Source: Campylobacterota bacterium (GTDB taxonomy: Bacteria; Campylobacterota; Campylobacteria; Campylobacterales; Sulfurimonadaceae). From it: DNA of 20,379 nucleotides. The notes under the pieces are model-generated. The model saw nothing but the letters and a program-made list of their open reading frames with translations, was not told the DNA's origin and searched no databases. The position numbers and the translations under genes were made by a program. This document shows, piece by piece, positions 2,420 to 20,379 of the stretch; the first letter of the stretch is position 1, and each line of letters starts with the position of its first letter. Location: contig JAYEMF010000037.1 in assembly GCA_034717975.1 (NCBI GenBank), positions 1 through 20,379 on the forward strand, in the 5' to 3' direction.

Positions 2420-2519
2420 TTCAAAAAAGGGAAGAGGACGTATGGCTTTAACAATAGGAATTCCCAGAGAGGTGCATAGCGGAGAGAGACGTGTCGCAGC
2501 AACCCCTGAAACATCAGAA
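2420..2519 (+). repeat. Direct repeat copy 2 (native pntA leader and 5' end)
   Basis: 94/100 identical to 1..100. Confidence 0.95.
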
Positions 2520-4016
2520 GAGCTGCAAAAGCTTGGGTTTAGTGTGCTGCTTGAAACCGATGCCGGGGAGAGTGCCAGTTTTCCTGATGATCTCTACCGG
2601 GAAGTGGGTGTTGAGATTATCAGTGATACAAAAACACTATGGAAAAGATCAGATATTATTCTGAAAGTTCGCGCGCCTGAAGTACATCCTCAGCTTGGCA
2701 TACATGAGGCAGAGCTTTTGGAGGAGGGAGCGTATCTGCTCAGCTTCATCTGGCCGGCACAAAACCCGGATCTGATGGAGAGACTGGCTGAGCGTAAAGC
2801 AACTGTACTGGCCATGGACAGCGTTCCGCGAATATCCAGGGCGCAAAAGCTTGATGCACTCAGTTCGATGGCCAACATTGCCGGATACCGTGCAGTAGTG
2901 GAAGCGGCCAGTCAGTTTGGACGGTTCTTGACCGGGCAGATCACTGCAGCCGGAAAAGTGGCTCCGGCCAAAGTCCTGGTGATTGGTGCCGGTGTAGCAG
3001 GTCTGGCCGCTGTAGGAACTGCGAACTCCATGGGAGCCATTGTACGTGCTTTTGATACCCGTCCCGAAGTCAAAGAGCAGGTAGAGAGTATGGGTGCAGA
3101 GTTCCTGGAACTCGACTTTGAGGAAGATGCCGAGGGTACGGGCGGTTATGCCAAAGTTATGAGCCCTGAGTTTATCAAGGCTGAGATGGAGCTCTTCGCC
3201 AATCAGGCGATGGAGGTCGATATTATCATTACTACGGCATTGATCCCGGGCAGACCGGCACCGGAACTGATTACCGAGGGAATGGTCGAGTCCATGCGCG
3301 AGGGAAGTGTCATTGTAGATCTTGCCGCTGAAAACGGGGGTAACTGTACCTTGACCGAACCGGGTGAAGTGGTAGTCAAACACGGTGTGACGCTGATCGG
3401 TTACACTGACCTTCCAAGCCGACTTCCCACCCAGTCGAGCCAGCTCTACGGAACCAATCTTCGGCATATGCTCAGTGACCTCTGCAAAGAGAGAGATGGA
3501 GAGATGACGATAGATATGGATGATGAGGTTATCCGCGGTACTACTGTTATCAGGGAGGGTGTTGTTACCTGGCCGCCTCCCGCGATAAAGGTTCCTGCCG
3601 CTCCCAAGCCGCAGGAGACCTTGAGTGAAACTGTAATGAAAACTGAAGAGAAGAAGAGCAGCAGATACGGAACTGCACTGCTTATGATCTTCGGTATTGC
3701 TGCAATGGCGGGACTCGGCTATGTCTCACCCCCGGACTTTCTGGCCCATTTTACGGTCTTTGTATTGGCCTGTTTTGTAGGTTATCAGGTGGTCTGGAAT
3801 GTAACACCTGCCTTGCATACACCGCTGATGAGCGTAACGAATGCCATAAGCGGCATCATCGTCCTGGGTGCACTGGTACAGTTCTCCGCAGAGTCCTCGA
3901 CTACAATTATGCTCTTGTCCCTGGTGGCGATTCTGGTTTCGGCTATCAATATCAGCGGTGGTTTCCTTGTAACCCATCGTATGTTGAAGATGTTTCAAAA
4001 AGATGAGGAGAAGTGA
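2442..4016 (+). CDS. pntA: NAD(P)+ transhydrogenase (Re/Si) subunit alpha, single-chain type
   Basis: [34 protein letters not shown]...FDTR, GGYAK loop, C-terminal TM part with [13 protein letters not shown]. Confidence 0.98.
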
Positions 4017-5410
4017 TGAGTGAAGGTTTACTGACTGTTGCATATATTATTGCCAGTGTTCTATTCATCTTGAGCCTCAGAGGATTGAGTCATCAGGAGA
4101 GTGCCCGCCGTGGTAATATCTATGGTATGTACGGTATGCTTATTGCCATTGCGGCCACTGTTTTGGGTGGTGAATCAGCCGGCGTGGAAGGAGTGCTTGC
4201 TGCGATGATCGTCGGTGGCATCATCGGGGCCGTCGTTGCAACAAGGGTCGAGATGACCGGGATGCCTCAACTGGTTGCCATGTTACACAGTTTTGTAGGG
4301 TTGGCGGCAGTGCTGGTAGGTTATGCCAATTACCTGGATCCGGAAGCTGCTTTGCACTTCAGCGGGGTGGGAAAAACGATTCACGATGTGGAGATTTACC
4401 TTGGAATTTTGATCGGTGCGGTGACGTTTACCGGCTCGCTGATCGCTTTTGGGAAACTGCAGGGTGTTATCGGCAGCAATCCTCTGCTTCTGCCGGCCCG
4501 TCATTGGCTCAACCTGGGACTTGGAGTGGCAACTGTCTGGCTAGGTGCCCAGTTTGTCAATGCGGATACGGTTTCTGAAGGAGCAACGCTTCTGGCGATC
4601 ATGACGCTGATCGCATTGGCTTTTGGTGTGCATATGGTAATGGCCATCGGCGGAGCAGATATGCCAGTAGTAGTTTCAATGCTTAACAGCTATTCGGGCT
4701 GGGCCGCTGCGGCGACAGGTTTTATGCTTTCGAATGACCTGCTGATCATTACGGGTGCATTGGTCGGAAGCAGCGGTGCTATTCTTTCGTACATTATGAG
4801 CCGTGCTATGAACCGCAGTTTTATCAGTGTCATTGCCGGAGGTTTTGGTACTGTTTCAGGAGAGGCTTCTGCCTCTGCAGTAGATGGTGAAACCATCTCC
4901 ATCGCCGCAGAGGAGACGGCAGAACTCTTAAGAGACGCGAAGCGGGTGATCATCGTTCCCGGTTACGGTATGGCGGTAGCCCAGGCCCAGCATCCCCTTG
5001 CGGAAATCACTAAAAAACTTCGAAACAGCGGGGTTGATGTACGTTTTGGTATTCACCCTGTTGCCGGACGGCTTCCGGGGCATATGAACGTGCTGCTCGC
5101 AGAGGCAAGAGTTCCTTATGATATTGTCCTTGAAATGGATGAGATCAATGCAGATTTTTCAGATACGGATGTGGTCCTGGTCATTGGTGCCAACGATACC
5201 GTAAACCCCTCTGCCATGGAAGACCCCTCAAGCCCAATTGCGGGAATGCCGGTTTTGGAAGTGTGGAAAGCAAAGAGTGTGGTAGTGATGAAACGGAGTA
5301 TGGCATCTGGTTATGCCGGTGTCGCAAACCCTCTCTTTTTCAAGGCCAATACCAGTATGCTGTTCGGCGATGCAAAAACGGGAGTTGATACCATACTTGG
5401 CAAGCTGTAG
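4016..5410 (+). CDS. pntB: NAD(P)+ transhydrogenase subunit beta
   Basis: [77 protein letters not shown] overlap with pntA and GAGGAG RBS (GTG 4013 is an alternative start). Confidence 0.98.
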
Positions 5411-7307: not shown

Positions 7308-8315
7308 TTAGTAATTGTTATCTACGATATAGGCATCCGGCTCAATAGCAAGATGGACCCTTTTGAGCTCTTTTTTTGCTTTTTCGTTATTTGGAAACGG
7401 ACCGATCAATACTCTTGTCAACTTTTCCCCATCATAGATGATTTCATTGAACGTATATCTATAGCCACTGAGCAAGATGTTTTCCAGCTGTTTTTTTTCG
7501 GGAGGATACTTGCTGAACGTGTAGATGTTTATGTAATAACCTGATCGTATCGATCTCTGTTTAACGCTCTTTTTCTTTGGAACAGCTGCCTGCTGTGGCG
7601 CGATTATTTGAATGTTCTCATCCATATCTTTGGATGCCAGATCGGCTATGCCGTTTATGCCCATGATAAGGTGGAATGCGTGAGGAGTCTGCTCTCTGAC
7701 ACATATAACATGCAGAGCCCTTTCAATGGAAAGATCACTATTGTCCCATTTGGCAGTTTCGGGAGTAGCGCCGAAACGGATATAGGAGACCTCTTCACTC
7801 TTTTGAAGCTTTACAGGCGGGTTTGATGCTATCAAGGTCATCTCTTTGGTGGCTTCGGAAAAAGGCACCTTGTATAACTCCTGAACGTTTGGAAGCTTCC
7901 AGTCGCTGTGACCGCCAAATGTAGCTTGTTGACACGCTTTCATCGCCTGATGGTAGGTCATCTCTATCGGTTGAAGCAGCACACCGTCTTTATATCTTTC
8001 AAAGGTGTATAGATATCCTTCTGTGTTCCATAGCTTTTTTGTATGAATTTTGCCGGATCTATAGATGGTCTCAGACTCTTTTTGACCATTCTCATACCAT
8101 TGACTCCCTTCACCTGTCGCTTTGCCGTTATGAAAAAAGAGTTCAGCTTTTTTCTGCCCATCCGGATGGAGTTGTATGACGCAACCCTCAAACGGAGTCG
8201 CACTGTTGAATGTGTAGAGTACCCCCTCTTTTAATTCTGTCTGATATTGCGGGATACACGACGCTGTGAGGGTTAGGGGTAAAAGAAGGGTGAACAATAA
8301 AAGTTTGTAAAACAT
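7308..8315 (-). CDS. Exported protein with MORN-variant repeats, a DUF1566-like domain and a C-terminal SPOR domain
   Basis: Signal peptide; HPDGQKKAE/YENGQKESE repeats; MTYHQAMKAC...GGHSDWKLPNVQEL...VICVR; GYYINI.TFS...RVLIGPF...AKKEL...IEPDAYIV. Confidence 0.7.
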   Translation of the reverse strand: MFYKLLLFTLLLPLTLTASCIPQYQTELKEGVLYTFNSATPFEGCVIQLHPDGQKKAELFFHNGKATGEGSQWYENGQKESETIYRSGKIHTKKLWNTEGYLYTFERYKDGVLLQPIEMTYHQAMKACQQATFGGHSDWKLPNVQELYKVPFSEATKEMTLIASNPPVKLQKSEEVSYIRFGATPETAKWDNSDLSIERALHVICVREQTPHAFHLIMGINGIADLASKDMDENIQIIAPQQAAVPKKKSVKQRSIRSGYYINIYTFSKYPPEKKQLENILLSGYRYTFNEIIYDGEKLTRVLIGPFPNNEKAKKELKRVHLAIEPDAYIVDNNY

Positions 8316-8462: not shown

Positions 8463-9482
8463 ATGCTTACTGAAAAGATGTTTGAAATGACAGGTATTGT
8501 TCAAAGGTTTTTTTCACATTTTTCCAAAAGATATCTGGATGACAGAAAGGCTCTGCTTGAAGCAGTCCGCAAAGACGGAAAAGCTTTGAAATATACCAGT
8601 GCAATACTGCAGGCAGATAGAGATATTGTACTTGAAGCCGTTAAAAATGATGGATCTGCATTGAAGTATGCAAGCAAAGAACTGCGTGCCGATAAAGAGG
8701 TGGTCCTCGAAGCCTATAGAAACGATTCCCAGGCATTCGAATACGCCGATAAAACGCTACAGGAAGATAAAGCACTTATTATCAAAGCCGTTAAAAATCA
8801 TTGCAATGTTCTGAATTTCGTAAACAAGGAAGTCGAAGGTGACAGGAATGTTATTCTTGAAGCTGTCAGGAACAACTGCGTGGGTATGGAATATGTCAAT
8901 CCTGTTTTTCGTTCAGATAAAGAGATCATCCTTGCGGCTGTTAAAAATTCTGTCACTGAATTCAGGTATGCCAGCACAGAACTGCGTTCTGATAAAGAGG
9001 TGGTGCTAGAAGCAGTCAGCCATTTCGGTGCTGCATTAAAGAGTGCGGACAAAGTGCTGCAAGCAGACAAAGAGGTGGTACTTGCGGCTGTGAAAAATAA
9101 CGGCTACGCATTGGAATTCGCCGATAAAGCATTGCAAGCGGATAAAGAGGTTGTTATGGAAGCCCTCAGACACGCCGGTTTGGCATTGGAGTTTGCCAGT
9201 GAAGCGCTAAAAGCAGACAGAGAAGTGGTTGTGATGGCAGTCAAAACACATCATGGCCGTGCTCTGGAGTTTGCCGACAAAGCACTTCAGAAAGATAAGG
9301 TGATAGTATGCGACGCAATTAAAAACAGCGGTTTGAAACTCGAATTTGTACATTCTGAACTAACAGCAGACAAAGAGGTGGTGCGTGAAGCCGTTAAAAT
9401 CGATAGCCAGGCATTAAGATATGCAAGCAAAGCACTGCAAGAAGACAAGTCCCTGATCGCTCTGGCCGCCGGGAGAAATTAG
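8463..9482 (+). CDS. DUF4116 repeat (helical solenoid) protein
   Basis: Twelve full 25-aa units (one of 26) plus a half unit, consensus ADKEVVLEAVKNxGxALEYAskxLq; AGGAGG RBS. Confidence 0.88.
   Translation: MLTEKMFEMTGIVQRFFSHFSKRYLDDRKALLEAVRKDGKALKYTSAILQADRDIVLEAVKNDGSALKYASKELRADKEVVLEAYRNDSQAFEYADKTLQEDKALIIKAVKNHCNVLNFVNKEVEGDRNVILEAVRNNCVGMEYVNPVFRSDKEIILAAVKNSVTEFRYASTELRSDKEVVLEAVSHFGAALKSADKVLQADKEVVLAAVKNNGYALEFADKALQADKEVVMEALRHAGLALEFASEALKADREVVVMAVKTHHGRALEFADKALQKDKVIVCDAIKNSGLKLEFVHSELTADKEVVREAVKIDSQALRYASKALQEDKSLIALAAGRN
8538..9479 (+). repeat. Degenerate 75-bp coding tandem repeat (~12.5 units)
   Basis: Recurring GC(A/C/G)GA(T/C)AAAGAGGT(G/T)GT-like words at 75-nt multiples, matching the protein repeat. 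Confidence 0.85.
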
Positions 9483-9491
9483 GGTTTTGAG

Positions 9492-11024
9492 ATGGATATA
9501 AAAGAGCATGGTATTTTTACCCAAAATCTTCTGAGGTCTCTGGGAACAGATGAGAAGACGCAGCTTATCGAAACTCATATCTCTACGATAATTTTGAGTG
9601 GTGATCTGGCATACAAGCTGAAAAAACCGGTCGATTTCGGTTTTTTGGACTACTCGACACTGGAGAAACGGTACAAAAACTCTCTTGAAGAGGTGCGCAT
9701 CAATGAAGGTTTTGCACCAGAACTCTATCTGGGCGTGATACCGATAACCGGTTCGATCGAAGATCCCCGGATAGATGGTGAAGGCAGAGTGTTGGATCAT
9801 GCTGTGAAAATGCGCCGTTTCGAGCAAAATTGTCAGCTGGACAATATGGTCGATGAAGGCAGACTCGATATGGACTTAATGGACAAGGCTGCGCAGATGA
9901 TAGCCGCCTTCCATAAGAGAACAGAAGCAGCAGCTCCTCAAAGTGAATTTGGAGCGCCTGTGCGGGTGCTTGCGCCGATGGAAGAAAACTTTGAACTTCT
10001 TAAAGCAGTGGGATCTTTTCAGGCAAAGATCGATGTAGTCGAACGTTGGACTTACGATGGTTATAAGAGGTTTAAACCGCTGCTGAAATCTCGCAAAGAG
10101 AACGGCTTTATCCGCGAGTGCCACGGTGATATGCATCTTCACAATATGGCAATGTTTGAGGGTAAACTGATCATGTTCGACGCGATCGAGTTCAATCCCT
10201 ATCTCAATCATATAGATGTTATCAGTGATCTTGCATTTTTGCTGATGGATCTCGAGTATCGCAGCCTGCATCAACTAAGCCGCCGTGTTTTAAACCGCTA
10301 TCTTGAACTGACCGGTGATTACGAAGGGGTCAGAGTGCTTGACTTCTATAAAACCTACCGTGCTATGGTCAGGGCCAAAGTAGCCGCACTCAGAGCATCA
10401 CAGGATATGCTAGAGAGTGAGCGTCAGAGCGTAATGGATGAAGTCGAAAGATATATTGATCTGGCACTGAGCTATACCCGGGAAAAAGAGCCCTTTATGG
10501 CCATTACGCATGGCTGTTCCGGATCGGGTAAAAGCACCTTTGCCCAGATGCTGGTTGAAACACATGGTGCTCTGCGCATCCGTTCGGATGCGGAACGGAT
10601 GCGGATGTTTGAGAGAAGTGATGAGAGTGGTTTGGAGGAAGGCATATACACCCCTGATACGACCAAAGCAACGTATGAGCGTCTTCTTGAACTGGCTGTC
10701 TCTGTTTATGAAGCCGGATATTCTGTCATTGTGGATGCAACATTTTTGAAGCAGTGGCAGCGCCGGCTCTTTATTGAACACGCTTCGACGGCTGAGGCTC
10801 CCTTCTGTCTTTTCACGATGGCGTGTGATCATGAAGTGATGCGAAGCAGGGTAGAGCACCGTTCAGAAGAGGGTTCGGATATCTCAGAAGCGGACCTGGA
10901 AGTACTGCAGCTGCAGATTAAAAGTGCCGAACCGCTTTCGGAGAGTGAAAGAGAGGTCGAAGTGACAATCGACTGCTCCTCAACAGCATCGATGCGTCAA
11001 TCGGCTGCAAGAATAATGCAATGA
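9492..11024 (+). CDS. Bifunctional APH/kinase-like plus AAA_33 (gluconate kinase-like) P-loop protein, Rv2004c-like
   Basis: IETHIS, AYKLKKPV.FGFLDYST, RECHGDMHL.N, FDAIEFN, ID..SD.AFL.MDL; Walker A GCSGSGKST, RSDAER, VDATFL, SDISEA. Confidence 0.88.
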   Translation: MDIKEHGIFTQNLLRSLGTDEKTQLIETHISTIILSGDLAYKLKKPVDFGFLDYSTLEKRYKNSLEEVRINEGFAPELYLGVIPITGSIEDPRIDGEGRVLDHAVKMRRFEQNCQLDNMVDEGRLDMDLMDKAAQMIAAFHKRTEAAAPQSEFGAPVRVLAPMEENFELLKAVGSFQAKIDVVERWTYDGYKRFKPLLKSRKENGFIRECHGDMHLHNMAMFEGKLIMFDAIEFNPYLNHIDVISDLAFLLMDLEYRSLHQLSRRVLNRYLELTGDYEGVRVLDFYKTYRAMVRAKVAALRASQDMLESERQSVMDEVERYIDLALSYTREKEPFMAITHGCSGSGKSTFAQMLVETHGALRIRSDAERMRMFERSDESGLEEGIYTPDTTKATYERLLELAVSVYEAGYSVIVDATFLKQWQRRLFIEHASTAEAPFCLFTMACDHEVMRSRVEHRSEEGSDISEADLEVLQLQIKSAEPLSESEREVEVTIDCSSTASMRQSAARIMQ

Positions 11025-11058
11025 ACAATTTATCTCTTTTTGGGCAGACCGATAAACC

Positions 11059-11301
11059 TCACTGCCGTTCAGAGAAATAGTCCGCCATATGTTCCAGTGT
11101 ATCTACCTTGCCGTAGTCGGCCTCGGGGACTTCCACACCAAGATGTTCATTCAGGGCGGTAAGCACTTTTAAAAAATCGAAGGAGTCGATCTCCAGAGAG
11201 CGCTGAAGGTTCTCATTCGGCTCGATCTCCTCTTCTTCGATCTCCGGGGCGATCTCCAGAATCTGTTCGATGATGGTGTTCTTGATCTCTTCTTTGGTCA
11301 T
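11059..11301 (-). CDS. Acyl carrier protein (phosphopantetheine site Ser40)
   Basis: 80 aa, very acidic, LEIDSFDF motif, GVEVPEADY; ATGA overlap with E2. Confidence 0.9.
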   Translation of the reverse strand: MTKEEIKNTIIEQILEIAPEIEEEEIEPNENLQRSLEIDSFDFLKVLTALNEHLGVEVPEADYGKVDTLEHMADYFSERQ

Positions 11302-12458
11302 AGTAGTTCCTCCGGTTTTTGTAGAAAGTTGTTCAGTCTGTCCAGAAACAGTGCTCCGGTGCGGCCATCAGTGGCACGGTGATCACCGGCGATAGTCGCC
11401 TGCATAACTTTGCGTACACTCAGTGCATCGCCCTCGGCCCATGGGGTATCGCTAATACGGCCCAGTCCCACAATCGCAACTTGGGGAGGGTAGATGACAC
11501 CATAGACGCGTTCCACACCCAGGTCACCCAAATTGGTGATAGTCACGGTCTGCTGCGTCATCTCGCTGCCACGCAGTTTGCCGGAGCGGGTGCGGGTGAT
11601 CAGGTCGCCCAGTGAGTGCATGGTCTCATCGAGGTTCATCTGCTGTGCATTGAGCAGTGCCGGGGTGATCAGCCCTCCCTTGCGAAGTACGATGGCAATA
11701 CCGGGATTGACCGCTTCGCTTACACGATGCGTATCTTCCTGCCAAAAGCCATTGAGCTCCGGTACTTCCTCCAATGTCCGTACAACGGCACGGATCAACA
11801 AGGCGGCGGGCAGAATACGATCTTTGATACTGCGTTTGCCATTGAGTGCTGCAAGCCACTCCAGGGCCGGTGTCATATTGATCGAGGTGGAGAGATAATA
11901 GTGGGGGATCTCGGCATTGGAGCGGCTCATGGCTCTGGCAATAGCCTGGCGTATGCCGTCTGATTCAGGGATTTTGTGCAGAGTTGCCGCTGCAGCCTCT
12001 ACCTTGCTGAGCTGTATGGTTCCGCCTGTTCCAGATGCAAGTTCAGCCAGGTCAACACCCAGTTCACGGGCTTTTCTCCGTGCTGCCGGCGAGGCTTTGA
12101 CCCTCTCTCTGGAAGAGAGCTCATTGGCGGGCATTAGTGCAGGCTCTTTTGAAGGTTCCGGCTCTAAAGGTTTCGCTTCCGGTTCCGGGAAAGTGTCGGC
12201 AGCCGACTCTTCCAACTCTTCGTTTTCAGAACGGATCAGGGCCAGCGGCATACCCACGGCACACTCGGTCTCCTCTTCGACGAGAATCTTCTCCACAATA
12301 CCATCTTCGAATACCTCGATCTCGATGACCCCTTTGCTTGTCTCCACTTCGGCGATCACCTGACCCTTTGTTACATGGTCACCCTCTTTGACCATCCACT
12401 CCATCAAAACGGCCGACTCCATGTCAGCCCCAAGGCTCGGCATTTTAAATTCGCTCAT
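11298..12458 (-). CDS. pdhC: 2-oxoacid dehydrogenase E2 (dihydrolipoamide acyltransferase), single lipoyl domain
   Basis: Lipoyl domain EVETSK42[32 protein letters not shown] and catalytic DHRATDG. Confidence 0.9.
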
Positions 12459-13438
12459 GCTTCCTCCATCAGTTGACGTGCCGTGGCAACGATCTTTTCG
12501 GGCTGCGGAATGGCGGCGTCCTCGAGATGTTTGGCGTAGGGGAGAGGGACTTCGGCGGTGCAGACTCTTCGCATAGGAGCATCAAGTTCAAAAAAGGCCT
12601 GCTCGTTGATGCGTGCCATGATTTCGGCGGAGATACTGCCTGACTTCCATCCCTCATCGACGATCATTACCCGGTGTGTTTTCCTGAGGGACTCCATGAT
12701 AGCCGCATCATCAAGCGGTCGCAGGGATCGCAGGTCGATCACTTCGGCGTCAATACCCTCTTCTGAGAGTGTCTCAGCCGCTTCCAGCGCTTTAAAGAGG
12801 TTGATACCGTAGGCGAGAATCGTCAGATCTCTGCCCGACCGATGGAGCAGGGATTTTCCGATAGGCAGGGGTGTGGCTGAGGTGTCGAGCGTCCCTTTGG
12901 CGTTATAGAGCAGGGAGTTTTCGAAGATCAGTACCGGATCAGGATCGGCCAGTGCCAGACCAACCATATCGTAGGCATCCTGTACGGTTGCAGGGGTAAG
13001 CACTTTGAGACCCGGAATGTGGGCATACCACCCCTCAAGGCTGTGTGAGTGCTGGGCGGCCAGCTGTTTGCCGCCGCCGGTCGCCATGCGGATTACCAGA
13101 GGAACATTGAACTGGCCGCCAGACATATGGAGCAAGGTGGCGGCGTTGTTCATGATCTGATCGAGGGCCAGCAGGCTGAAATTTACCGTCATGATCTCCA
13201 CGATGGGGCGCATACCGTTCATGGCGGCACCGATACCCGCACCGGTAAACGCTGATTCAGAGAGTGGCGTATCGATGATCCGTTCAGCTCCAAACTCTTC
13301 TTGAAGTCCCATACTCACGGCGAAACAGCCGCCGTAACGGCCGACATCTTCTCCCATCAGAAAGACCCGTTCATCTTTTTGCATCGCTTCACGGATACTT
13401 TGGCGAACCGCTTCGCGGTAGGTACTGTTCTCACCCAT
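12455..13438 (-). CDS. pdhB: Pyruvate dehydrogenase E1 beta subunit (327 aa)
   Basis: [44 protein letters not shown] 13438 with GAGGAGG RBS preferred over the ORF-track start 13507. Confidence 0.92.
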
Positions 13439-14408
13439 TGTGCACCTCCTCAGAGTAGACGAATTTTTCAAGATCAGTGACGGGCTCCAGTGTGCCGTTT
13501 TCGGCAAATTTCACCGCCTCGTTAATGATCTCTGCGATCTCATCTTCGATCTCATCGCGATTGATCTTTGACCAGAGGTCCATCGCTTCAAGCCTGTTCT
13601 GAAATAGTACCAGAGGACCTTTCTTCTTCCACTCTTCGACTTCCGCTTTTTCACGGTAGAGTTCAGCATCAAACAGAGAGTGGGCGCGGAAACGGTAGGT
13701 AAGGCATTCGAGAAAGCGAGGGCCCTTTCCGGCGCGGATCTCTGCCACTGCTTCTTCAGCTGCCTCGGCAACATCGACGACACTCATCCCATCTACCTGT
13801 TTGGAACCAAGCTTATAAGCTGCTGCTTTGCGGGCGATATTTGTCTCCGACTCAGAGAACTCCAGGGCAGTTCCCATGCCGTAGCGGTTGTTTTCACAAA
13901 TAAAGAGCACCGGCAGTTGCCACAGAGCGGCGAGGTTTAAAGATTCGTGAAACTCTCCTTCGGCCACAGCGCCATCGCCAAAGAGGCAGACCGTGACCCG
14001 GTTGCGTTTCATCATCTTGTCTGCCATTGCCATCCCGACGGCCAGTGGCAGAGCGCCGCCGACAATGGCGCTGCCGCCGTAAAAGCGTGTTGCGGCATCA
14101 AAAAGATGCATGGAACCGCCCCGTCCGCGGGAGCATCCCTCCACCTTTCCGTACATTTCGGCCATGATGCTTTTGGCAGAGATCCCGCGTGCAAGAGCCT
14201 GTCCATGTTCTCGGTAGGTGGCAAGTACGGCATCTTCAGGGCTCAGTGCATGCATAACGCCCACCGCTATCGCTTCCTCTCCGATGTAGAGATGCAAAAA
14301 GCCCCGAATCTTCTCGCTGCTGTAGAGCTCTACGCACTTCTCTTCAAAGCGCCGGATCAATAGCATCTGCCGGTAAAATTCCCGGGCCAGTGTCAAATCT
14401 AAATCCAT
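13431..14408 (-). CDS. pdhA: Pyruvate dehydrogenase E1 alpha subunit
   Basis: [29 protein letters not shown] motif GDGA...[20 protein letters not shown]. Confidence 0.92.
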
Positions 14409-14419
14409 AGTTGCTCCTT

Positions 14420-16171
14420 TTAATCTTCCAAGGTGGAAATGTCACCCTCGGGCAGTCCCATCTCCCGTGCTTTAAGCAGCCGGCGCATGATCTTGCCGCT
14501 TCGGGTCTTTGGCAGGTTTTCCTGGAACTCGATCTCTTTGGGTGCGACTGCAGCTCCCAGCTTCTTGCGTCCGAAGCCGATCAGTTCGCGTCTGAGCTCC
14601 TCTGTGGCCTCAAAACCGGTTTTGAGCGAGACAAAGGCTTTGACCAGCTGGCCGATGATCGGGTCTGGCTTGCCGATAACACCGGCTTCTGTCACCGCCG
14701 GGTGTTCCATCAGGGCACTTTCTACTTCGAAAGGGCCTACCATATGGCCGGAGGTCTTGATGATATCATCGGAGCGTCCGACAAACCAGAAATAGCCCGC
14801 TTCATCCCTGTAGGCAAGGTCGCCGGAGATATACCACTCTCCGACAAAACTTTTTTTGTATTTCTCTTCATTATGAAGGTAGGCCCGGAACATGGAGGGC
14901 CAGCCAGCTTTCAGTGCCAGATCTCCCTCCTTGCCCGCTTCAGTGACCTCTGTAACGGTGCCATCATCATTTTGATGTACGATTGCAGCTTCAATGCCGG
15001 GAAGGGGCCTGCCCATAGAACCGGGACGTATGGTCTGAGAGATCAGGTTGGTGATCATGATCCCGCCTGTCTCTGTCTGCCACCAGTTATCGTGGATCGG
15101 CAATTTGAGTTTCTTCGCTCCCCAGACTACCGCTTCGGGATTGAGCGGTTCGCCGACGCTCTGGATCAGGCGCAGTCGGGAGAGGTCATACTCTTTCGTC
15201 GGTTCGGAGTCGATGCGCATCAGGCGTCGGATCGCCGTGGGAGCGGTATACCAGATACTGACCTGCTCATCCTGCAAAACACCGTACCACCGCTCGGCAT
15301 TGAACTCCGCTTCATCCACAACGTTAGTGACACCATGAATCCAGGGGGTGATGATGCCGTATGAGGTGCCGGTGACCCAACCCGGGTCGGCAGTACACCA
15401 GTAGATGTCATCGCTATGGAGGTCGAGTACGTATTGGCCGGTCATCCAGTGGGTGTAGACGGCTTTATGTACATGCACCACTCCCTTTGGCATTCCGGTG
15501 GTGCCGCTGGTGAAGTGGAGTATCGACATATCTTCAGGATCGGTGGGCGGAATCTCAAAGGTGTCAGAGGCCTTTTCCATCAGGCGGGGGAGGGAGAGAA
15601 CCTGTTCGCTCTCATCTTCTTCGGCATCGATCAGCAGGACATAACGAAGTTCCGGCAGCTGCTCGAGCAGGGGGCGTATCTTTTTTTTGAAGAGTCTCTG
15701 TGTCGTCAAGAGGGCTCTTGCATCGCCCCGCTGCATGCGCTGCAGTATGGGCTCGGGGCCGAACTGGGAGAAGAGCGGGCAGATGACGCTGCGGTTTTTC
15801 AGGATGCCCATGGCGGCGATGTAGAGTTCGGGCAGACGTGTAGAGAGGGTGAAGATACGATCGCCCTTTGAGAGCCCAAGTGATTGGATCACATTGGCGA
15901 ACCTGGCGCTCTCCTTTTTCATCTCGGAAAAGGTGTATCTTCTTTTTTTACCACTCTCTCCAAGCCATAACAGAGCGGTTTTGTCTGCGAGGGGACCATT
16001 GGCATGGCGGTCGATCGCTTCGTGGGCGATATTGAGCCCGCCTGAGGGCAGTCCCTCGAACACTTGGGCCACCGCTTCCCAGCTAAAGGCTTCACGTTCC
16101 TGATCATAGTCCGTCAGGTTCGGCTGAACTGGAAAATCCTCTGCTCTTTTTTCGATCCACTTCTCTTCCAT
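14420..16171 (-). CDS. acsA: Acetate--CoA ligase (AMP-forming), Bacillus AcsA-like, 583 aa
   Basis: [54 protein letters not shown] 16171 with AAAGGA RBS preferred over 16240. Confidence 0.92.
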
Positions 16172-16199
16172 CTTGCATCCTTTAAAAAGTCTGTTTTCA

Positions 16200-16237
16200 G
16201 GTTTTAAGGTAAAACCAATAATAACATATAATATAAT
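16200..16237. promoter_or_regulatory. Divergent promoter region: palindrome GGTTTTA-AGG-TAAAACC (16200-16216) and overlapping TATAAT hexamers (16227-16237, plus strand)
   Basis: Read directly in the 120-bp AT-rich spacer between acsA and the lipoylation operon. Confidence 0.5.
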
Positions 16238-16291
16238 CAAAAGAGATGTAATTGGTGTCTTTTTTGAATGCTTGTCCGATAACAGGAGGTC

Positions 16292-17074
16292 ATGATCAAA
16301 GCAAAAACGTGGCGGCTTATCGAAAGCGGGATTGGGCCTGCTGACTGGAATATGGCGCTGGACGAGGCGCTGCTGAACGGCTTCAGAGAGGGTGACCAGC
16401 CGATTCTTCGGCTCTATGGATGGGAACCGGCCCTGAGTCTGGGACGGTTTTCAAGTGTTCACAAGAGTGTGGATATGGAGAGGCTGGAGCAACAGCAACT
16501 TTCCTGCGTACGCCGTATGACCGGAGGAGGAGTACTGGTGCATGGCGGGGATCTCTCCTATGCGCTGGTCCTGCCCCGTAAATCCCTAAAGGACAGAGGG
16601 GTGCGAGAGAGTTACCGTTACCTGTGCCGGTTTCTCATCCGCCTCTATGAAAAGCTGGGCCAAAATGCCCATTTTGCCCGTGATCTGCAGCTCGAGGGCG
16701 GAAGGTCCGATATCTGTCTGGCTGATAATGAGGCCTATGATATTGTAATCGAAGGCAGAAAAATGGGTGGTAATGCCCAGCGTCATACCCGCCACATTCT
16801 GTTTCAGCACGGTAGTATCCCTATGAACGTGGATGAGTCACGCTTCAAACCACTTTTTTTGGGGGATTCCGGATTGGAGCGTGCGGCAACGCTTCAGCGG
16901 CTGGGAAACGAGGTGGCCTATGAAGAGCTTGCAGGCTTGCTGAGAGAGTCGTTCAGTGAAACGTTTGATGTGAATGTCGCGGAGGAGAATCTGCGTCCGT
17001 CGGAAGAGGAGCGTGCCATGGAGCTCTTGACGCAAAAATACAGCCGGCAAAGGTGGAACATCAATGGAGAATAG
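16292..17074 (+). CDS. lipM: Single-domain LplA-family protein, LipM-like octanoyltransferase
   Basis: [26 protein letters not shown]142...GRK157MGGNAQ, QHGSI; Cys-Lys spacing of 15 as in B. subtilis LipM; no LplA C-terminal domain; AGGAGG RBS. Confidence 0.7.
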
Positions 17075-17921
17075 AATTATGCGTAAACCGGAGTGGCTGC
17101 GTAAAAAGATCACACCGAGCGACCACAAAGCGATGGAGACCCTGTTGGCCGAAGGGCGACTCCATACGGTCTGTGAGGAGGCGATGTGTCCCAATATCAG
17201 TGAATGTTTTCGCCAGAAGCAGGCAACGTTTCTGATACTGGGCAATATCTGTACCCGCGCCTGCAGTTTCTGTGCCCTCAGCAGGGGAAGGCTTATGGCG
17301 CCGGACTCCGATGAGCCTGGAAATGTGGCTCAAACAGTCAGGCGGCTTGGACTGCGGCACGTGGTCATTACCAGCTCCACGCGCGATGATCTGAGTGACG
17401 GCGGTGCCGGGCACTTTTGTGAGACGGTACACGCCATTAAAGCCATCGATGACGCCATTACCGTAGAGCTGTTGATCCCCGATATGCAAGAAAACGAGGA
17501 GACACTCGCATTGGTAGCCAAGAGCGGAGCCGAGATTGTCGGGCATAATCTGGAGACGGTACCGCGCCTCTATCATGTGCGGAAGGGAGCGGAGTATGAA
17601 CGCTCACTGCGGGTACTGAAGATGCTCTCCTCTGTCAATCCCTCGATCGCGACCAAAAGCGGTATCATGCTCGGTTTTGGTGAACGTGACGACGAAGTGA
17701 TGAATTTGATGCAGGACCTTCTGGATGTGGGATGCGGGTATCTCAGTATCGGTCAGTACCTGGCTCCTTCGCACAATCATGCCGCGGTTGTGGAGTATGT
17801 AAAACCGGAGCGGTTTGAGTTGTTCAGAAAGCGCGGGATGGAGATGGGGTTTAAGTACATTAAAAGTTCACCCTATACGCGCAGCAGTTATATGGCGCAC
17901 GAATATCTGGAGGCAAGATGA
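17064..17921 (+). CDS. lipA: Lipoyl synthase (radical SAM)
   Basis: KPEWL, CEEAMCPNISEC (CX4CX5C), CTRACSFC (CX3CX2C), RDDL, HNLETV, GQYL.P, RSSY; alternative ATG at 17079. Confidence 0.97.
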   Translation: MENRIMRKPEWLRKKITPSDHKAMETLLAEGRLHTVCEEAMCPNISECFRQKQATFLILGNICTRACSFCALSRGRLMAPDSDEPGNVAQTVRRLGLRHVVITSSTRDDLSDGGAGHFCETVHAIKAIDDAITVELLIPDMQENEETLALVAKSGAEIVGHNLETVPRLYHVRKGAEYERSLRVLKMLSSVNPSIATKSGIMLGFGERDDEVMNLMQDLLDVGCGYLSIGQYLAPSHNHAAVVEYVKPERFELFRKRGMEMGFKYIKSSPYTRSSYMAHEYLEAR

Positions 17922-19264
17922 AAAAGTACGAAGCAGTGGTGATCGGGGCAGGTCCCGGAGGTTATGAAGCCGCATTGAAGTTGGCTGAAGCAGGTGTGAA
18001 GACCTTGCTGATCGATCGAAACAAAGAGCGTCTCGGCGGAACGTGCCTGAACGAGGGATGCATCTCTGCCAAAGCCTATCTTCAGAGTGCGGAGTATGTC
18101 TCAAAAGCCTCCCATTTCAGTGAGTGCGGTGTGGCGCTGGAAGTCAAGGGGTTGGACATGGCGCGTCTTGCAGAGAAAACAGTGTCGCTGAAGAATGAGA
18201 TCCGCTCGGGTGTCGTATGGCTGCTCGAACAGGCAGGGGTTGAGACGCTCTACGGCTCTGCATGTTTTATCGATGCCAACAGTGTTGAGGTCTCAGGCGA
18301 GAGGATCGGTTTTGAGAAGTGCATTATCGCAACGGGATCAGCAGTCCGGGAGATGCCGCAGCTGCCGCTCGAGGGCAAGCGCATTATCTCCAGTAAAGAG
18401 GTGTTTGAACTGGAGTCTCTGCCTGCCTCGATTACCATTGTCGGAGGAGGACCCATCGCGTGCGAATTTGCCACCTTTTTCACTGCTTTCGGCGTGGAGG
18501 TGACGATGATAGTACGTGGTTTACAGCTTCTCTCTGCAGAAGATAAGGATGTTGCCAAGGCGTTGTTGCGGGCCTTTAAAAAACGAAATATCAAAGTAAT
18601 CACCTCTGCCGCTGTTCAAAAGGCTGAAGTGAATGGGGAGGGCGTCGAGTTACTCATCGAGGCAGGGAGCCAGGAGCGTATCCGGAGTGAACTGCTGCTC
18701 TGTGCAAGCGGCCGTATCCCCTATACCGATGGTCTCCAGAGTGAAAATGCCGGAGTGGAGAAAAACGAAAAGGGCTTTATTGCGGTCGATGCATCGTTTC
18801 AGACGACCCGAAATCATATCTATGCCGTCGGGGATTGCATCGATACGCCGGCCTTTGCGCACACGGCGTATGCCGAAGCGAGGATCGCCGTGCAAAATAT
18901 TGTCAGCGGCGGAGCAGCCACCAACACCCATATTACCCCTTCCACCATCTACAGCGATCCTGCTGTCGCAAGCTGCGGCCTGAGAGAGAAGGAAGCCAAA
19001 GCGCAGGGGCGTGCCGTCGAAGTCAAAAAAGCCTTTTTCAAGGCCAATGCAAAGGCGAAGATCGAGGGGGATGACTCCGGATTTGCGAAGATGATCGTCT
19101 GCGCGGAGAGCGGTGTGGTCCTGGGCGCTTCAATCATCGGGGTCGAAGCAACGGAGATCATTCACGAAATGGTACTCTCTGTTGAGAAAAAGCTGACGGC
19201 TGAGGATCTTAAAGGGATGATCCACGCACACCCGAGCGTATCGGAGATTGTCAGTTGTCTATAG
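17918..19264 (+). CDS. lpdA: Dihydrolipoamide dehydrogenase (E3) with an NADP-type dinucleotide fold
   Basis: GAGPGG, GGTCLNEGCI redox disulfide, ATGS, YAVGD, ANAKA, HAHPSVSE; ATGA overlap with lipA. Confidence 0.9.
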   Translation: MKKYEAVVIGAGPGGYEAALKLAEAGVKTLLIDRNKERLGGTCLNEGCISAKAYLQSAEYVSKASHFSECGVALEVKGLDMARLAEKTVSLKNEIRSGVVWLLEQAGVETLYGSACFIDANSVEVSGERIGFEKCIIATGSAVREMPQLPLEGKRIISSKEVFELESLPASITIVGGGPIACEFATFFTAFGVEVTMIVRGLQLLSAEDKDVAKALLRAFKKRNIKVITSAAVQKAEVNGEGVELLIEAGSQERIRSELLLCASGRIPYTDGLQSENAGVEKNEKGFIAVDASFQTTRNHIYAVGDCIDTPAFAHTAYAEARIAVQNIVSGGAATNTHITPSTIYSDPAVASCGLREKEAKAQGRAVEVKKAFFKANAKAKIEGDDSGFAKMIVCAESGVVLGASIIGVEATEIIHEMVLSVEKKLTAEDLKGMIHAHPSVSEIVSCL

Positions 19265-20368
19265 TAGTGTTTCGAGTGCTTTCGACTCCAGGCCGAGTGC
19301 CTTGGCAACGGCAGGGTTGGTAACCGACCCGTTAAAGATATTGACACCAAGTGCGAGGGAAGAGTCATTTTTAATGGCATCGGGACACCCCTCATTGGCC
19401 AGTTTTCGTATATAGGGGAGTGTGGCATTGGTCAGAGCGACCGTAGCGGTTTTCGGGTACGCTCCGGGCATATTGGCCACGCAGTAGTGAAGCACCTCCT
19501 CCTCTATAAAAATCGGGTCGGTGTGGGTCGTCGGCCGCGAGGTTTCGGAGATGCCGCCCTGATCGATCGTAATATCGACCAGAACACTTCCTTTTTTCAT
19601 CTTCCGCAGCATATCGCGTGTTATCAGTTTTGGCGTCGTGGCACCTCCATGGATCAACACCGTACTGATGACAACATCCGAATCCGGCAGCAGTTCACGA
19701 AGCATTTCCGGAGAGTAGAGGGCTGTTTTAGCGGAAGGAAGTACTTTTTGCAGCTGTTCCAGTTTTGGTGCTGAACGGTTCAGTACGGTCACGTCCGCAC
19801 CCATACCGATGGCTATTTTAGCCGCGTTAAACCCGGCATTGCCGGCACCGATGATCAGGACATTCGCCGGTGCCACCCCGACAGCACCGCCTATGAGGAT
19901 ACCTTCACCGCCCTGGTAACGGCTGAGATGACAAGCCGCAACCGACGGCGCCATCTTACCGGCTATCTCGCTCATCGGTTTTAGCAGTGGAAGCAGGTTG
20001 TCAGATGCGACGGTCTCGTAGGCGATGGCGCAGACTCTTTTTTCGATGAGAACAGAGACCAGCTCCGGCAGCGGTGCGAGGTGCAGGTAGCAAAAGAGGG
20101 TATGGCGTTCACTTAAAAGGTCATACTCGGATGGCTGCGGCTCTTTCACCTTGACGATCAGTGTCGCCCGGGCATAGAGTGTTTCGGCACTTGTTAGTAC
20201 TTCTGCACCGGCATTGCGGTATTGCGCATCACTGAAACCGCTCCCCTCTCCGGCACCGCGCTGCACTAAAACGGTGTGGCCGTCCTCAATGAGCTGTGCC
20301 ACATTGAAGGGTGTGGCACCAACGCGAAACTCATCTGTTTTCACCTCTTTGGGAATACCGAGTGTCAT
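19259..20368 (-). CDS. ald: Alanine dehydrogenase, with N-R-S replacing the NAD-determining Asp
   Basis: GIPKEVK..EFRV..TP, KVKEP, YLHLA, IAYETV, LPLL.PMSEIAG, DITIDQGG..ETSRPTTH, HYCVANMPGA; AGGAG RBS at the window end. Confidence 0.95.
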   Translation of the reverse strand: MTLGIPKEVKTDEFRVGATPFNVAQLIEDGHTVLVQRGAGEGSGFSDAQYRNAGAEVLTSAETLYARATLIVKVKEPQPSEYDLLSERHTLFCYLHLAPLPELVSVLIEKRVCAIAYETVASDNLLPLLKPMSEIAGKMAPSVAACHLSRYQGGEGILIGGAVGVAPANVLIIGAGNAGFNAAKIAIGMGADVTVLNRSAPKLEQLQKVLPSAKTALYSPEMLRELLPDSDVVISTVLIHGGATTPKLITRDMLRKMKKGSVLVDITIDQGGISETSRPTTHTDPIFIEEEVLHYCVANMPGAYPKTATVALTNATLPYIRKLANEGCPDAIKNDSSLALGVNIFNGSVTNPAVAKALGLESKALETLL

Positions 20369-20379
20369 CTTTTTCTCCT

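Follow-up and report, generated by a model that had tools for sequence, protein, structure and literature searches.

Can the dihydrolipoyl dehydrogenase (E3) of a natural pyruvate dehydrogenase (PDH) complex deliver electrons to NADP+ as well as, or rather than, to NAD+? This question is raised by contig JAYEMF010000037.1 (GenBank assembly GCA_034717975.1) of a Campylobacterota bacterium of the family Sulfurimonadaceae, all 20,379 nucleotides of which were analysed (hereafter the window), and more precisely by its lpd gene, which codes for an E3 that we called P0002. Textbooks, genome annotations and metabolic models assign NAD+ as the cofactor of the PDH complex and of the other 2-oxo acid dehydrogenase complexes. 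A sequence-only reading of the window had proposed that P0002 carries a glutathione-reductase-like fingerprint and serves an NADP+-reducing complex. We report here that in P0002 and nearly all of its closest relatives the Glu residue typical of the cofactor site of E3s is replaced by a non-acidic residue followed by Arg, and we discuss what this may mean for cofactor use.

The cofactor loop of P0002 and its relatives

The sequences of Escherichia coli lpd, gor, sthA and rclA were taken from the annotated K-12 MG1655 record and aligned with P0002. The fingerprint of P0002, GGGPIACEFATFFTAFGVEVTMIVRGLQLLS (residues 176-206), is the exact translation of its coding segment (Table 1), and it aligns without gaps with E. 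coli Lpd and Gor, as had been described for Lpd. In this alignment, residues A181, A185, V199, R200, G201, L202 and S206 of P0002 correspond to G187, G191, E205, M206, F207, D208 and P212 of Lpd (with Met as residue 1); the names G185, G189, E203, M204, F205, D206 and P210 used earlier designate the same Lpd residues in an older numbering, with an offset of 2. The corresponding residues of Gor are A, A, V, R, K, H and R. The earlier statement that P0002 has the Gor state at four of the seven positions changed in an engineered NADP-type Lpd (A, A, V and R) was correct, as was the remark that the other three are unmatched: the K, H and R of Gor at columns 201, 202 and 206 are G, L and S in P0002. 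Such an NADP+-accepting E. coli Lpd was reportedly engineered by Bocanegra, Scrutton and Perham in 1993.

In the AlphaFold model of P0002 (mean pLDDT 96.4, pTM 0.93), the second Rossmann unit comprises strand beta1 (residues 171-175), the glycine-rich helix (residues 179-190) and strand beta2 (residues 194-198), and V199 and R200 therefore stand exactly at the C-terminal end of beta2. NAD-specific Rossmann units have an acidic residue at that place, and the Glu of ordinary E3s bonds the adenosine ribose hydroxyls and repels the 2'-phosphate. Where E. coli Lpd has E205-M206-F207, P0002 has Val-Arg-Gly, and the third Gly of the GXGXXG motif is replaced by Ala in P0002.

The clade of P0002 was sampled as its 120 best database relatives, P0002 included, which range from 57 to 100% identity. 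The whole clade falls into a single 50%-identity cluster, and its next neighbours are found at 42% identity. The outgroup consisted of the closest non-clade representatives of 50%-identity clusters, with 145 proteins aligned at column 199 and 138 scored at column 185. Position 199 is non-acidic in 119 of the 120 clade members (Ala in 49, Val in 42, Gly in 16, Ser in 4, Gln in 3, Leu and Ile in 2 each and Cys in 1). Arg200 is likewise found in 119 of them and a Gly or Ser at position 201 in 113, and the commonest motifs at positions 199-201 are ARG (45 proteins) and VRG (39 proteins). Among the non-clade representatives, 141 of the 145 have Glu or Asp at column 199. A scan of the clade versus the outgroup yielded 17 clade-specific positions, and Arg200 is the only one of them that lies within the fingerprint. 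A fixed Arg200 preceded by a varying non-acidic residue is the pattern expected if Arg were functionally needed and any non-acidic residue were tolerated before it.

The four matches to Gor thus turned out not to have the same weight. The V199-R200 pair is the real signal, whereas Ala185 was ruled out as an NADP marker, since Ala is present at this position in 114 of the 138 outgroup E3-like proteins, and Ala181 is rare in the clade, occurring in 6 of the 120 members, with Gly in the other 114. The proteins with A181 are 64-78% identical to P0002, and the GXGXXA motif requires at least four changes on the clade tree, which indicates that Ala181 arose repeatedly on the Arg background. The other clade members that have it are P0013, P0014, P0039, P0111 and P0118, and the background is always T-M-x-(V/I)-R-G. 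Basic residues (Lys, Arg or His) are found in 5 clade members at position 201, 2 at 202, 9 at 203, 1 at 206 and 5 at 207. Similarly, the description of the fingerprint as glutathione-reductase-like is right as regards the loss of the NAD-specifying Glu, which gives way to Val with Arg after it, the state of NADPH-dependent Gor, but not as regards the other basic residues that bind the 2'-phosphate in Gor, which are missing.

The sole Glu-bearing member of the clade is P0069, from a cluster of two sequences. It reads E-Y-L(-P) and shares 73% identity with the clade member closest to it; in the tree it is a basal branch of the clade, on the outgroup side. One change each in the acid/non-acid state and in the Arg state suffices on a FastTree of 123 rows. 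Most simply, E-Y-L would have been exchanged once for (A/V/G)-R-(G/S), P0069 having split off before; as the tree is in principle unrooted, it is also possible that P0069 reverted to Glu instead of having kept an ancestral E-Y-L. Because Arg is conserved throughout the rest of the clade while the preceding residue varies among non-acidic ones, and because GXGXXA was gained repeatedly, these patterns argue that the cofactor pocket has been remodelled towards that of NADP enzymes, under selection.

The combination of a non-acidic residue and Arg is not unique to the Sulfurimonadaceae clade. Three other 50%-identity representatives, P0154, P0178 and P0264, which score 498-511 bits with TIGR01350, the NCBIfam equivalog model of lipoamide dehydrogenases, have V-R-S, H-R-S and Y-R-G, respectively, at the end of beta2. 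NADP-type loops may have arisen several times among E3-like proteins.

We also compared the NAD(P) domain of P0002 alone (residues 150-280) with the PDB sequences. The glutathione reductases 4dna (73.5 bits) and 3o0h (65.8 bits) and the mercuric reductase 5x1y (61.0 bits) ranked ahead of the best E3s, 6uzi (60.2 bits) and 1ebd (59.3 bits). In the alignments, I-V-R-G of P0002 lies opposite I-Y-R-G of 4dna and L-H-R-G of 3o0h. P0002 has in common with glutathione reductases (E. coli Gor, 4dna and 3o0h) both GXGXXA and the non-acidic residue followed by Arg at the end of beta2; the next residue is Gly in 4dna and 3o0h, as in P0002, whereas it is Lys in E. coli Gor. Locally, the V/A-R-G of the clade is the solution that NADPH-dependent glutathione and trypanothione reductases have in their x-R-G.

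Cofactor use by P0002

In the mechanism that we propose, P0002 would re-oxidize the dihydrolipoyl arm of the single E2 by means of its C43-C48 disulfide, flavin adenine dinucleotide and the His438-Glu443 dyad, and hydride would then pass to the nicotinamide cofactor in the second Rossmann unit. With Val, Ala or Gly in the place of Glu in the clade E3s, followed by a near-invariant Arg and by Gly or Ser, P0002 would accept NADP+, either together with NAD+ or preferentially. The oxidation of pyruvate would then supply NADPH in chemolithoautotrophs that use the reverse tricarboxylic acid (TCA) cycle.

Work on E. coli Lpd bears directly on the role of the Glu residue. Bouzon et al. (2021, PMC8406311) state that wild-type Lpd has no detectable activity with NADP+ and that the E205G or E205A replacement alone yields kcat/KM values for NADP+ of 7.8 and 6.5 s-1 mM-1, with NADP+/NAD+ kcat/KM ratios of 0.6-1.9 and an NADP+ activity sufficient for the growth of an NADPH auxotroph. 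According to the Discussion of the same paper, the best engineered variant, with E205V and four further changes, has a 100-fold preference for NADP+. The engineered NADP-preferring Lpd is listed as E205V M206R F207K D208H P212R in a review (PMC5817062), and seven amino acid mutations are cited for the NADP-type enzyme in PMC7730738. As reported in these sources, removal of Glu is experimentally sufficient for NADP+ acceptance in the E3 family, and the changes made for efficiency include an Arg at the position that follows (PMC8406311, PMC5817062). The earlier proposal that Glu is the barrier to NADP+ is borne out by the single-site variants (PMC8406311).

The natural loops resemble the engineered and laboratory-evolved ones in the loss of this Glu (E205V in the engineered enzyme, E205G/A in the evolved ones), and the engineered M206R is equivalent to the natural Arg200. 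They have Gly or Ser where the engineered Lpd has Lys, and they are without the engineered His and second Arg. Unlike those of the engineered and evolved enzymes, the loop of the clade arose in nature and has been kept in 119 of 120 relatives. We lean towards the view that P0002 performs physiologically relevant NADP+ reduction, either as an enzyme of dual specificity or as an NADP-preferring one. It is possible rather than probable that the clade represents a naturally NADP+-preferring lipoamide dehydrogenase, created once by the three-residue replacement of E-Y-L by A/V-R-G. From these sequences we infer a candidate NADP+-reducing PDH complex.

Several points weigh against NADP+ use. The loop of P0002 has a single basic residue, and the second and third basic residues of the Gor type are missing from the columns where Gor has K, H and R. 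Ser206 was rejected as a part of the switch, as the Glu-bearing P0069 also has Ser206. The margin in the search with the NAD(P) domain is modest (73.5 versus 60.2 bits), and that of full-length P0002 over the TIGR01350 cut-off is slim (422 versus 408.8 bits). Lastly, the kcat/KM of wild-type E. coli Lpd with NAD+ is given as 830 s-1 mM-1, the single-site variants being ~100-fold less efficient with NADP+ (PMC8406311), and loss of Glu alone therefore does not make a good NADP enzyme.

P0002 might thus be an ordinary NAD+-preferring E3 in which the loss of Glu and the gain of Arg tune the affinity for NAD+/NADH or product inhibition, or in which Arg200 has a structural or adenine-stacking role, with no physiologically relevant use of NADP+. 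In addition to the paucity of basic residues in the loop, this would fit with the poor performance of the single-site Lpd variants with both cofactors (PMC8406311) and with Sulfurimonas genome papers that call the complex NADH-forming at the level of annotation (PMC3958643, PMC7952632). However, it does not readily account for the retention of Arg200 over the 57-100% identity range while position 199 drifts among non-acidic residues, for the x-R-G motif common to P0002 and NADPH-dependent reductases, or for the repeated gain of GXGXXA inside the clade. Moreover, the acidic residue is kept in all but four of the 145 neighbouring E3-like representatives, which argues that its loss is not neutral drift. 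We consider an ordinary NAD+-linked role rather unlikely, and physiologically relevant NADP+ reduction remains the reading that we prefer.

A need for NADPH would fit the metabolic setting, which is however not probative for the cofactor of the E3. ATP-citrate lyase is present in the genome, and no match to zwf (glucose-6-phosphate dehydrogenase) was found in it. The genes pntA and pntB, for a proton-translocating NAD(P) transhydrogenase, are found at positions 2442-5410 (+) of the window, both above equivalog cut-offs and 12 kb away from the PDH genes; pntAB were not seen within the flanks of related loci. Being only compatible, these aspects of NADPH supply were dropped as an argument for the E3 cofactor. 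The idea that NADH would be useless for want of the NADH module of complex I was ruled out by a Complex1_51K (NuoF-type) match in the genome.

The PDH genes and the identity of their E3

The genes for E1alpha, E1beta and a three-domain E2 are encoded adjacent to P0002 (Table 1), in agreement with the proposed membership of P0002 in a PDH complex. The complex appears from its E1alpha and E1beta subunits to be a mitochondrial-type PDH, and P0002 is almost certainly its E3. The E2 is the only protein with a 2-oxoacid_dh match in the genome, at 5.5 kb from lpd, and no GcvH match was found in this genome of 99.91% completeness; the E2 is therefore the only visible client of the E3. Known E3s such as those of Geobacillus stearothermophilus (PDB 1ebd) and E. 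coli (4jdr) also have partner E2 proteins with lipoyl and E3-binding domains. Four POR-type 2-oxoacid:ferredoxin oxidoreductase matches are present in the genome as well. The true starts of acs and pdhB probably lie downstream of the listed TTG codons: the family matches start at residues 31 and 29, respectively, and the pdhB open reading frame (ORF) would overlap pdhA by 77 bases if it began at the listed TTG.

Table 1. Features of the PDH locus and of P0002, with positions in the window
Feature	Position	Strand	Evidence
lpd, dihydrolipoyl dehydrogenase (E3), P0002, 448 residues	17918..19264	+	TIGR01350 match; PDB and Foldseek matches; sole over-cut-off match in the genome
NAD(P)-binding beta-alpha-beta fingerprint, P0002 residues 176-206	18443..18535	+	Exact translation; gapless alignment with E. 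coli Lpd and Gor
V199-R200-G201, putative cofactor-specificity switch at the C-terminal end of beta2 (E205-M206-F207 in E. coli Lpd)	18512..18520	+	Clade and outgroup counts; tree
A181, third position of GXGXXG/A (GXGXXA in P0002)	18458..18460	+	Clade counts; tree
Redox-active disulfide C43-L-N-E-G-C48 of P0002	18044..18061	+	Alignment; clade conservation
C-terminal His438...Glu443 catalytic dyad (HAHPSVSE) of P0002	19229..19246	+	Alignment; clade conservation
lipA, lipoyl synthase	17064..17921	+	TIGR00510, 333 bits (cut-off 310); stop overlaps lpd start
LplA/LipB-family lipoate (octanoyl) protein ligase or transferase	16292..17074	+	Pfam LplA-B_cat, E = 5.9e-35; NCBIfam LplA models all below cut-off
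acs, acetate--CoA ligase, first gene of the divergent operon	14420..16240	-	NF003313, 936 bits (cut-off 729)
pdhA, E1alpha	13431..14408	-	TIGR03182, 435.5 bits (cut-off 393.85)
pdhB, E1beta	12455..13507	-	NF006667, 406.8 bits (cut-off 321)
E2, dihydrolipoyl acetyltransferase	11298..12458	-	Pfam Biotin_lipoyl (residues 3-75), E3_binding (120-147) and 2-oxoacid_dh (167-386)
ald, alanine dehydrogenase, convergent with lpd	19259..20368	-	TIGR00518, 438 bits (cut-off 391.85)

We compared this PDH island with 23 related loci, 22 from a species-genome collection and one additional locus, L004. In all of the 15 loci whose upstream flank is long enough, the E2, E1beta, E1alpha and Acs genes share a strand and the LplA-(LipA)-E3 genes are on the opposite one. 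Acs lies between E1alpha and LplA in each of them (L031, L034-L036, L038-L042, L044-L046, L048, L049 and L051). In 13 of the 15, lipA is directly upstream of the E3 gene, and it is missing between LplA and E3 in L038 and L046. As for the eight shorter loci, L030 and L032 have almost no upstream sequence, and the other six have LipA, LplA or both directly upstream. The position of the LplA-family gene is kept across the related loci, and ald adjoins the E3 gene only in the closest relatives (L030, L041 and L004). Alanine dehydrogenase supplies pyruvate. An E3 of the clade (E <= 1e-120) was found in 38 of the 201 Sulfurimonadaceae genomes searched, in 7 of 23 genera, a patchy distribution, and none was found in the two congeners searched. 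A promoter and terminator scan of positions 11000-20379 gave counts not above those of shuffled sequence. As to expression, a search for sequencing runs yielded four DNA data sets, all of a single study, and no RNA data set.

The island bundles two routes to acetyl-CoA, from acetate via the AMP-forming Acs and from pyruvate, together with lipoylation genes of its own. The LplA-family protein presumably loads octanoate or lipoate directly onto the single E2. Residues 39-43 of this E2, the lipoyl-lysine motif, are E-T-S-K-G, and Ser or Asn is found at the third place in 14 of the 14 aligned E2 sequences; the usual motif is D-K-A. The usual G-R-I-x-K-x-D tail is missing from the subunit-binding domain.

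With respect to the substrate of E1, the complex served by P0002 might act on acetoin or on another 2-oxo acid, which would be compatible with NADP+ use by its E3. Acetoin dehydrogenase E1 and E2 are close relatives of those of type-II PDH, the E2 of the island is under all NCBIfam equivalog cut-offs (TIGR01349, 229.9 versus 445 bits), and the acetoin E2 model NF011457 matches it, in the lipoyl domain only. In contrast, E1alpha passes the PDH-specific model TIGR03182 and E1beta passes NF006667 (Table 1). The best PDB match of E1alpha is human PDH E1alpha (252 bits), ahead of the Thermus 2-oxo acid dehydrogenase (172 bits) and branched-chain 2-oxo acid dehydrogenase (128 bits), the best PDB matches of the E2 are PDH E2 proteins, and the gene adjoining E3 in the closest relatives codes for the pyruvate-making alanine dehydrogenase. 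A substrate other than pyruvate therefore appears improbable.

P0002 is a genuine E3 according to its family model, catalytic residues, fold and position in the tree. In addition to P0002, clade members P0054, P0069 and P0116 pass TIGR01350, with scores of 447-450 bits. The rival models remain below their cut-offs (in brackets) for P0002, with 315.5 bits for SthA (465), 299.9 for MerA (454) and 232.8 for RclA (740), and so do the glutathione reductase models NF004776, with 277.7 bits (480), TIGR01424, with 243.4 bits (606), and TIGR01421, with 213.1 bits (556). The score with the mycothione reductase model is likewise far under the cut-off. The best 36 PDB sequence matches of full-length P0002 are all E3s, among them 1ebd, a full-length homologue with 284 bits, and the first match that is not an E3 is a mercuric reductase (208 bits), the best glutathione reductase reaching 200 bits. 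In a Foldseek search with the AlphaFold model, all the matches listed to rank 49 are E3s, with TM-scores of 0.94-0.97 (0.95-0.97 for known E3s such as 1ebd and 4jdr).

P0002 is 33% identical to E. coli Lpd and has in common with it the CxxxxC disulfide and the His-Glu dyad. CLNEGC of P0002 aligns with CLNVGC of Lpd, and HAHPSVSE with HAHPTLHE. Lpd, Gor, SthA and RclA all have the Cys that corresponds to C43 of P0002, and it is kept in all 120 clade members; C48 is kept in 119. H438 and E443 are also found in 120 of 120 members and are invariant in an 83-row alignment.

A 69-row tree was obtained with a quick IQ-TREE run with SH-aLRT support only. The E3 clade has 100% support, and so does its sister group, which consists of Glu-bearing proteins of other Campylobacterota (P0123, P0124, P0139, L005 and L006); the P0123 cluster holds Arcobacter and Campylobacteraceae records. 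The clade and its sister group are nested among Glu-bearing E3-like representatives, and E. coli Gor, RclA, plasmid MerA and SthA are found elsewhere. Long branches make the exact position of some outgroup sequences uncertain, but none of them comes near the clade. The tree, which had been named as a check in the sequence-only reading, agrees with the family models, the PDB matches and the fold that P0002 is a true E3 and not an enzyme of the Gor, MerA, RclA or SthA type. P0002 differs from glutathione reductases not only in its family scores and its branching apart from Gor, but also in its genetic context, with PDH and lipoate synthesis genes rather than glutathione metabolism. P0002 is the sole class-I disulfide reductase of its genome and the one protein above the E3 cut-off, the second TIGR01350 match having 40.8 bits.

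It is therefore highly improbable that P0002 is an NADPH-dependent disulfide reductase resembling an E3 (e.g. a free lipoamide/thiol reductase with a part in oxidative-stress defence), as the likeness of its cofactor loop to those of glutathione and mercuric reductases and a TIGR01350 score just 13 bits above the cut-off might suggest, because the PDH island would then be left without a true E3 in the genome, its E2 has an E3-binding domain, the P0002 gene is translationally coupled to lipA and always adjoins the E1/E2 operon, the tree, fold and catalytic dyad are all E3-like, and the models of the other reductases are far below their cut-offs.

Three further genes of the window are outside the PDH island. 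A protein of 339 residues, encoded at 8463-9482 (+), is made up of DUF4116 repeats over nearly its whole length (7 stretches, 333 bits). The 510-residue ORF at 9492-11024 (+) has an AAA_33/zeta-toxin-like P-loop kinase domain in its C-terminal third (residues 336-482); it has no NCBIfam match, and its 330 N-terminal residues have no Pfam match. The 335-residue protein encoded at 7308-8315 (-) has a SPOR domain at its C terminus, matches MORN_2 and Lcl_C weakly and is probably secreted or lipid-anchored.

Implications of the remodelled loop

In the literature searched, we found no natural NADP+-dependent E3 of a PDH complex but only engineered or laboratory-evolved E3s and labels of pyruvate:NADP+ oxidoreductase. 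NADP(H)-using lipoamide dehydrogenase activities were reportedly described in glycine-fermenting anaerobes by Andreesen's group around 1989-1990. Nothing on E3 cofactor use was found in PMC3519856 or PMC5264521, and the 'NADP+-dependent pyruvate dehydrogenase' of PMC5264521 is a gene label in an expression figure. The pan-genome work on vent Epsilonproteobacteria describes the E1alpha/beta-type PDH as patchy in Sulfurimonas-like genomes and thought to be acquired (PMC3958643); this type-II PDH has its E1alpha/beta type and its patchiness in common with the island described here. In the passages of PMC3958643 and PMC7952632 that deal with the Sulfurimonas complex, its product is treated as NADH and no mention is made of the cofactor fingerprint of its E3.

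An NADPH-forming PDH, which couples the supply of acetyl-CoA to that of biosynthetic reducing power, has been sought by engineering and by laboratory evolution, according to PMC8406311 and PMC7730738. If the E3s of the clade do prefer NADP+, the clade would provide the first natural counterpart of the NADP-dependent PDH, a target of engineering since 1993, with a simpler solution than the engineered one, and cofactor switching of E3s would be shown to occur in nature. If it is of the NADP type, the loop of the clade would be a ready template, one that selection has already optimized. P0069 is a natural control for the cofactor switch, and a minimal natural switch is suggested by its comparison with the other clade members. 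For the bacteria themselves, a preference of the E3 for NADP+ would make the PDH complex a dedicated generator of NADPH in sulfur oxidizers that use the reverse TCA cycle and have no zwf match, and the redox-balance models of these widespread organisms would change.

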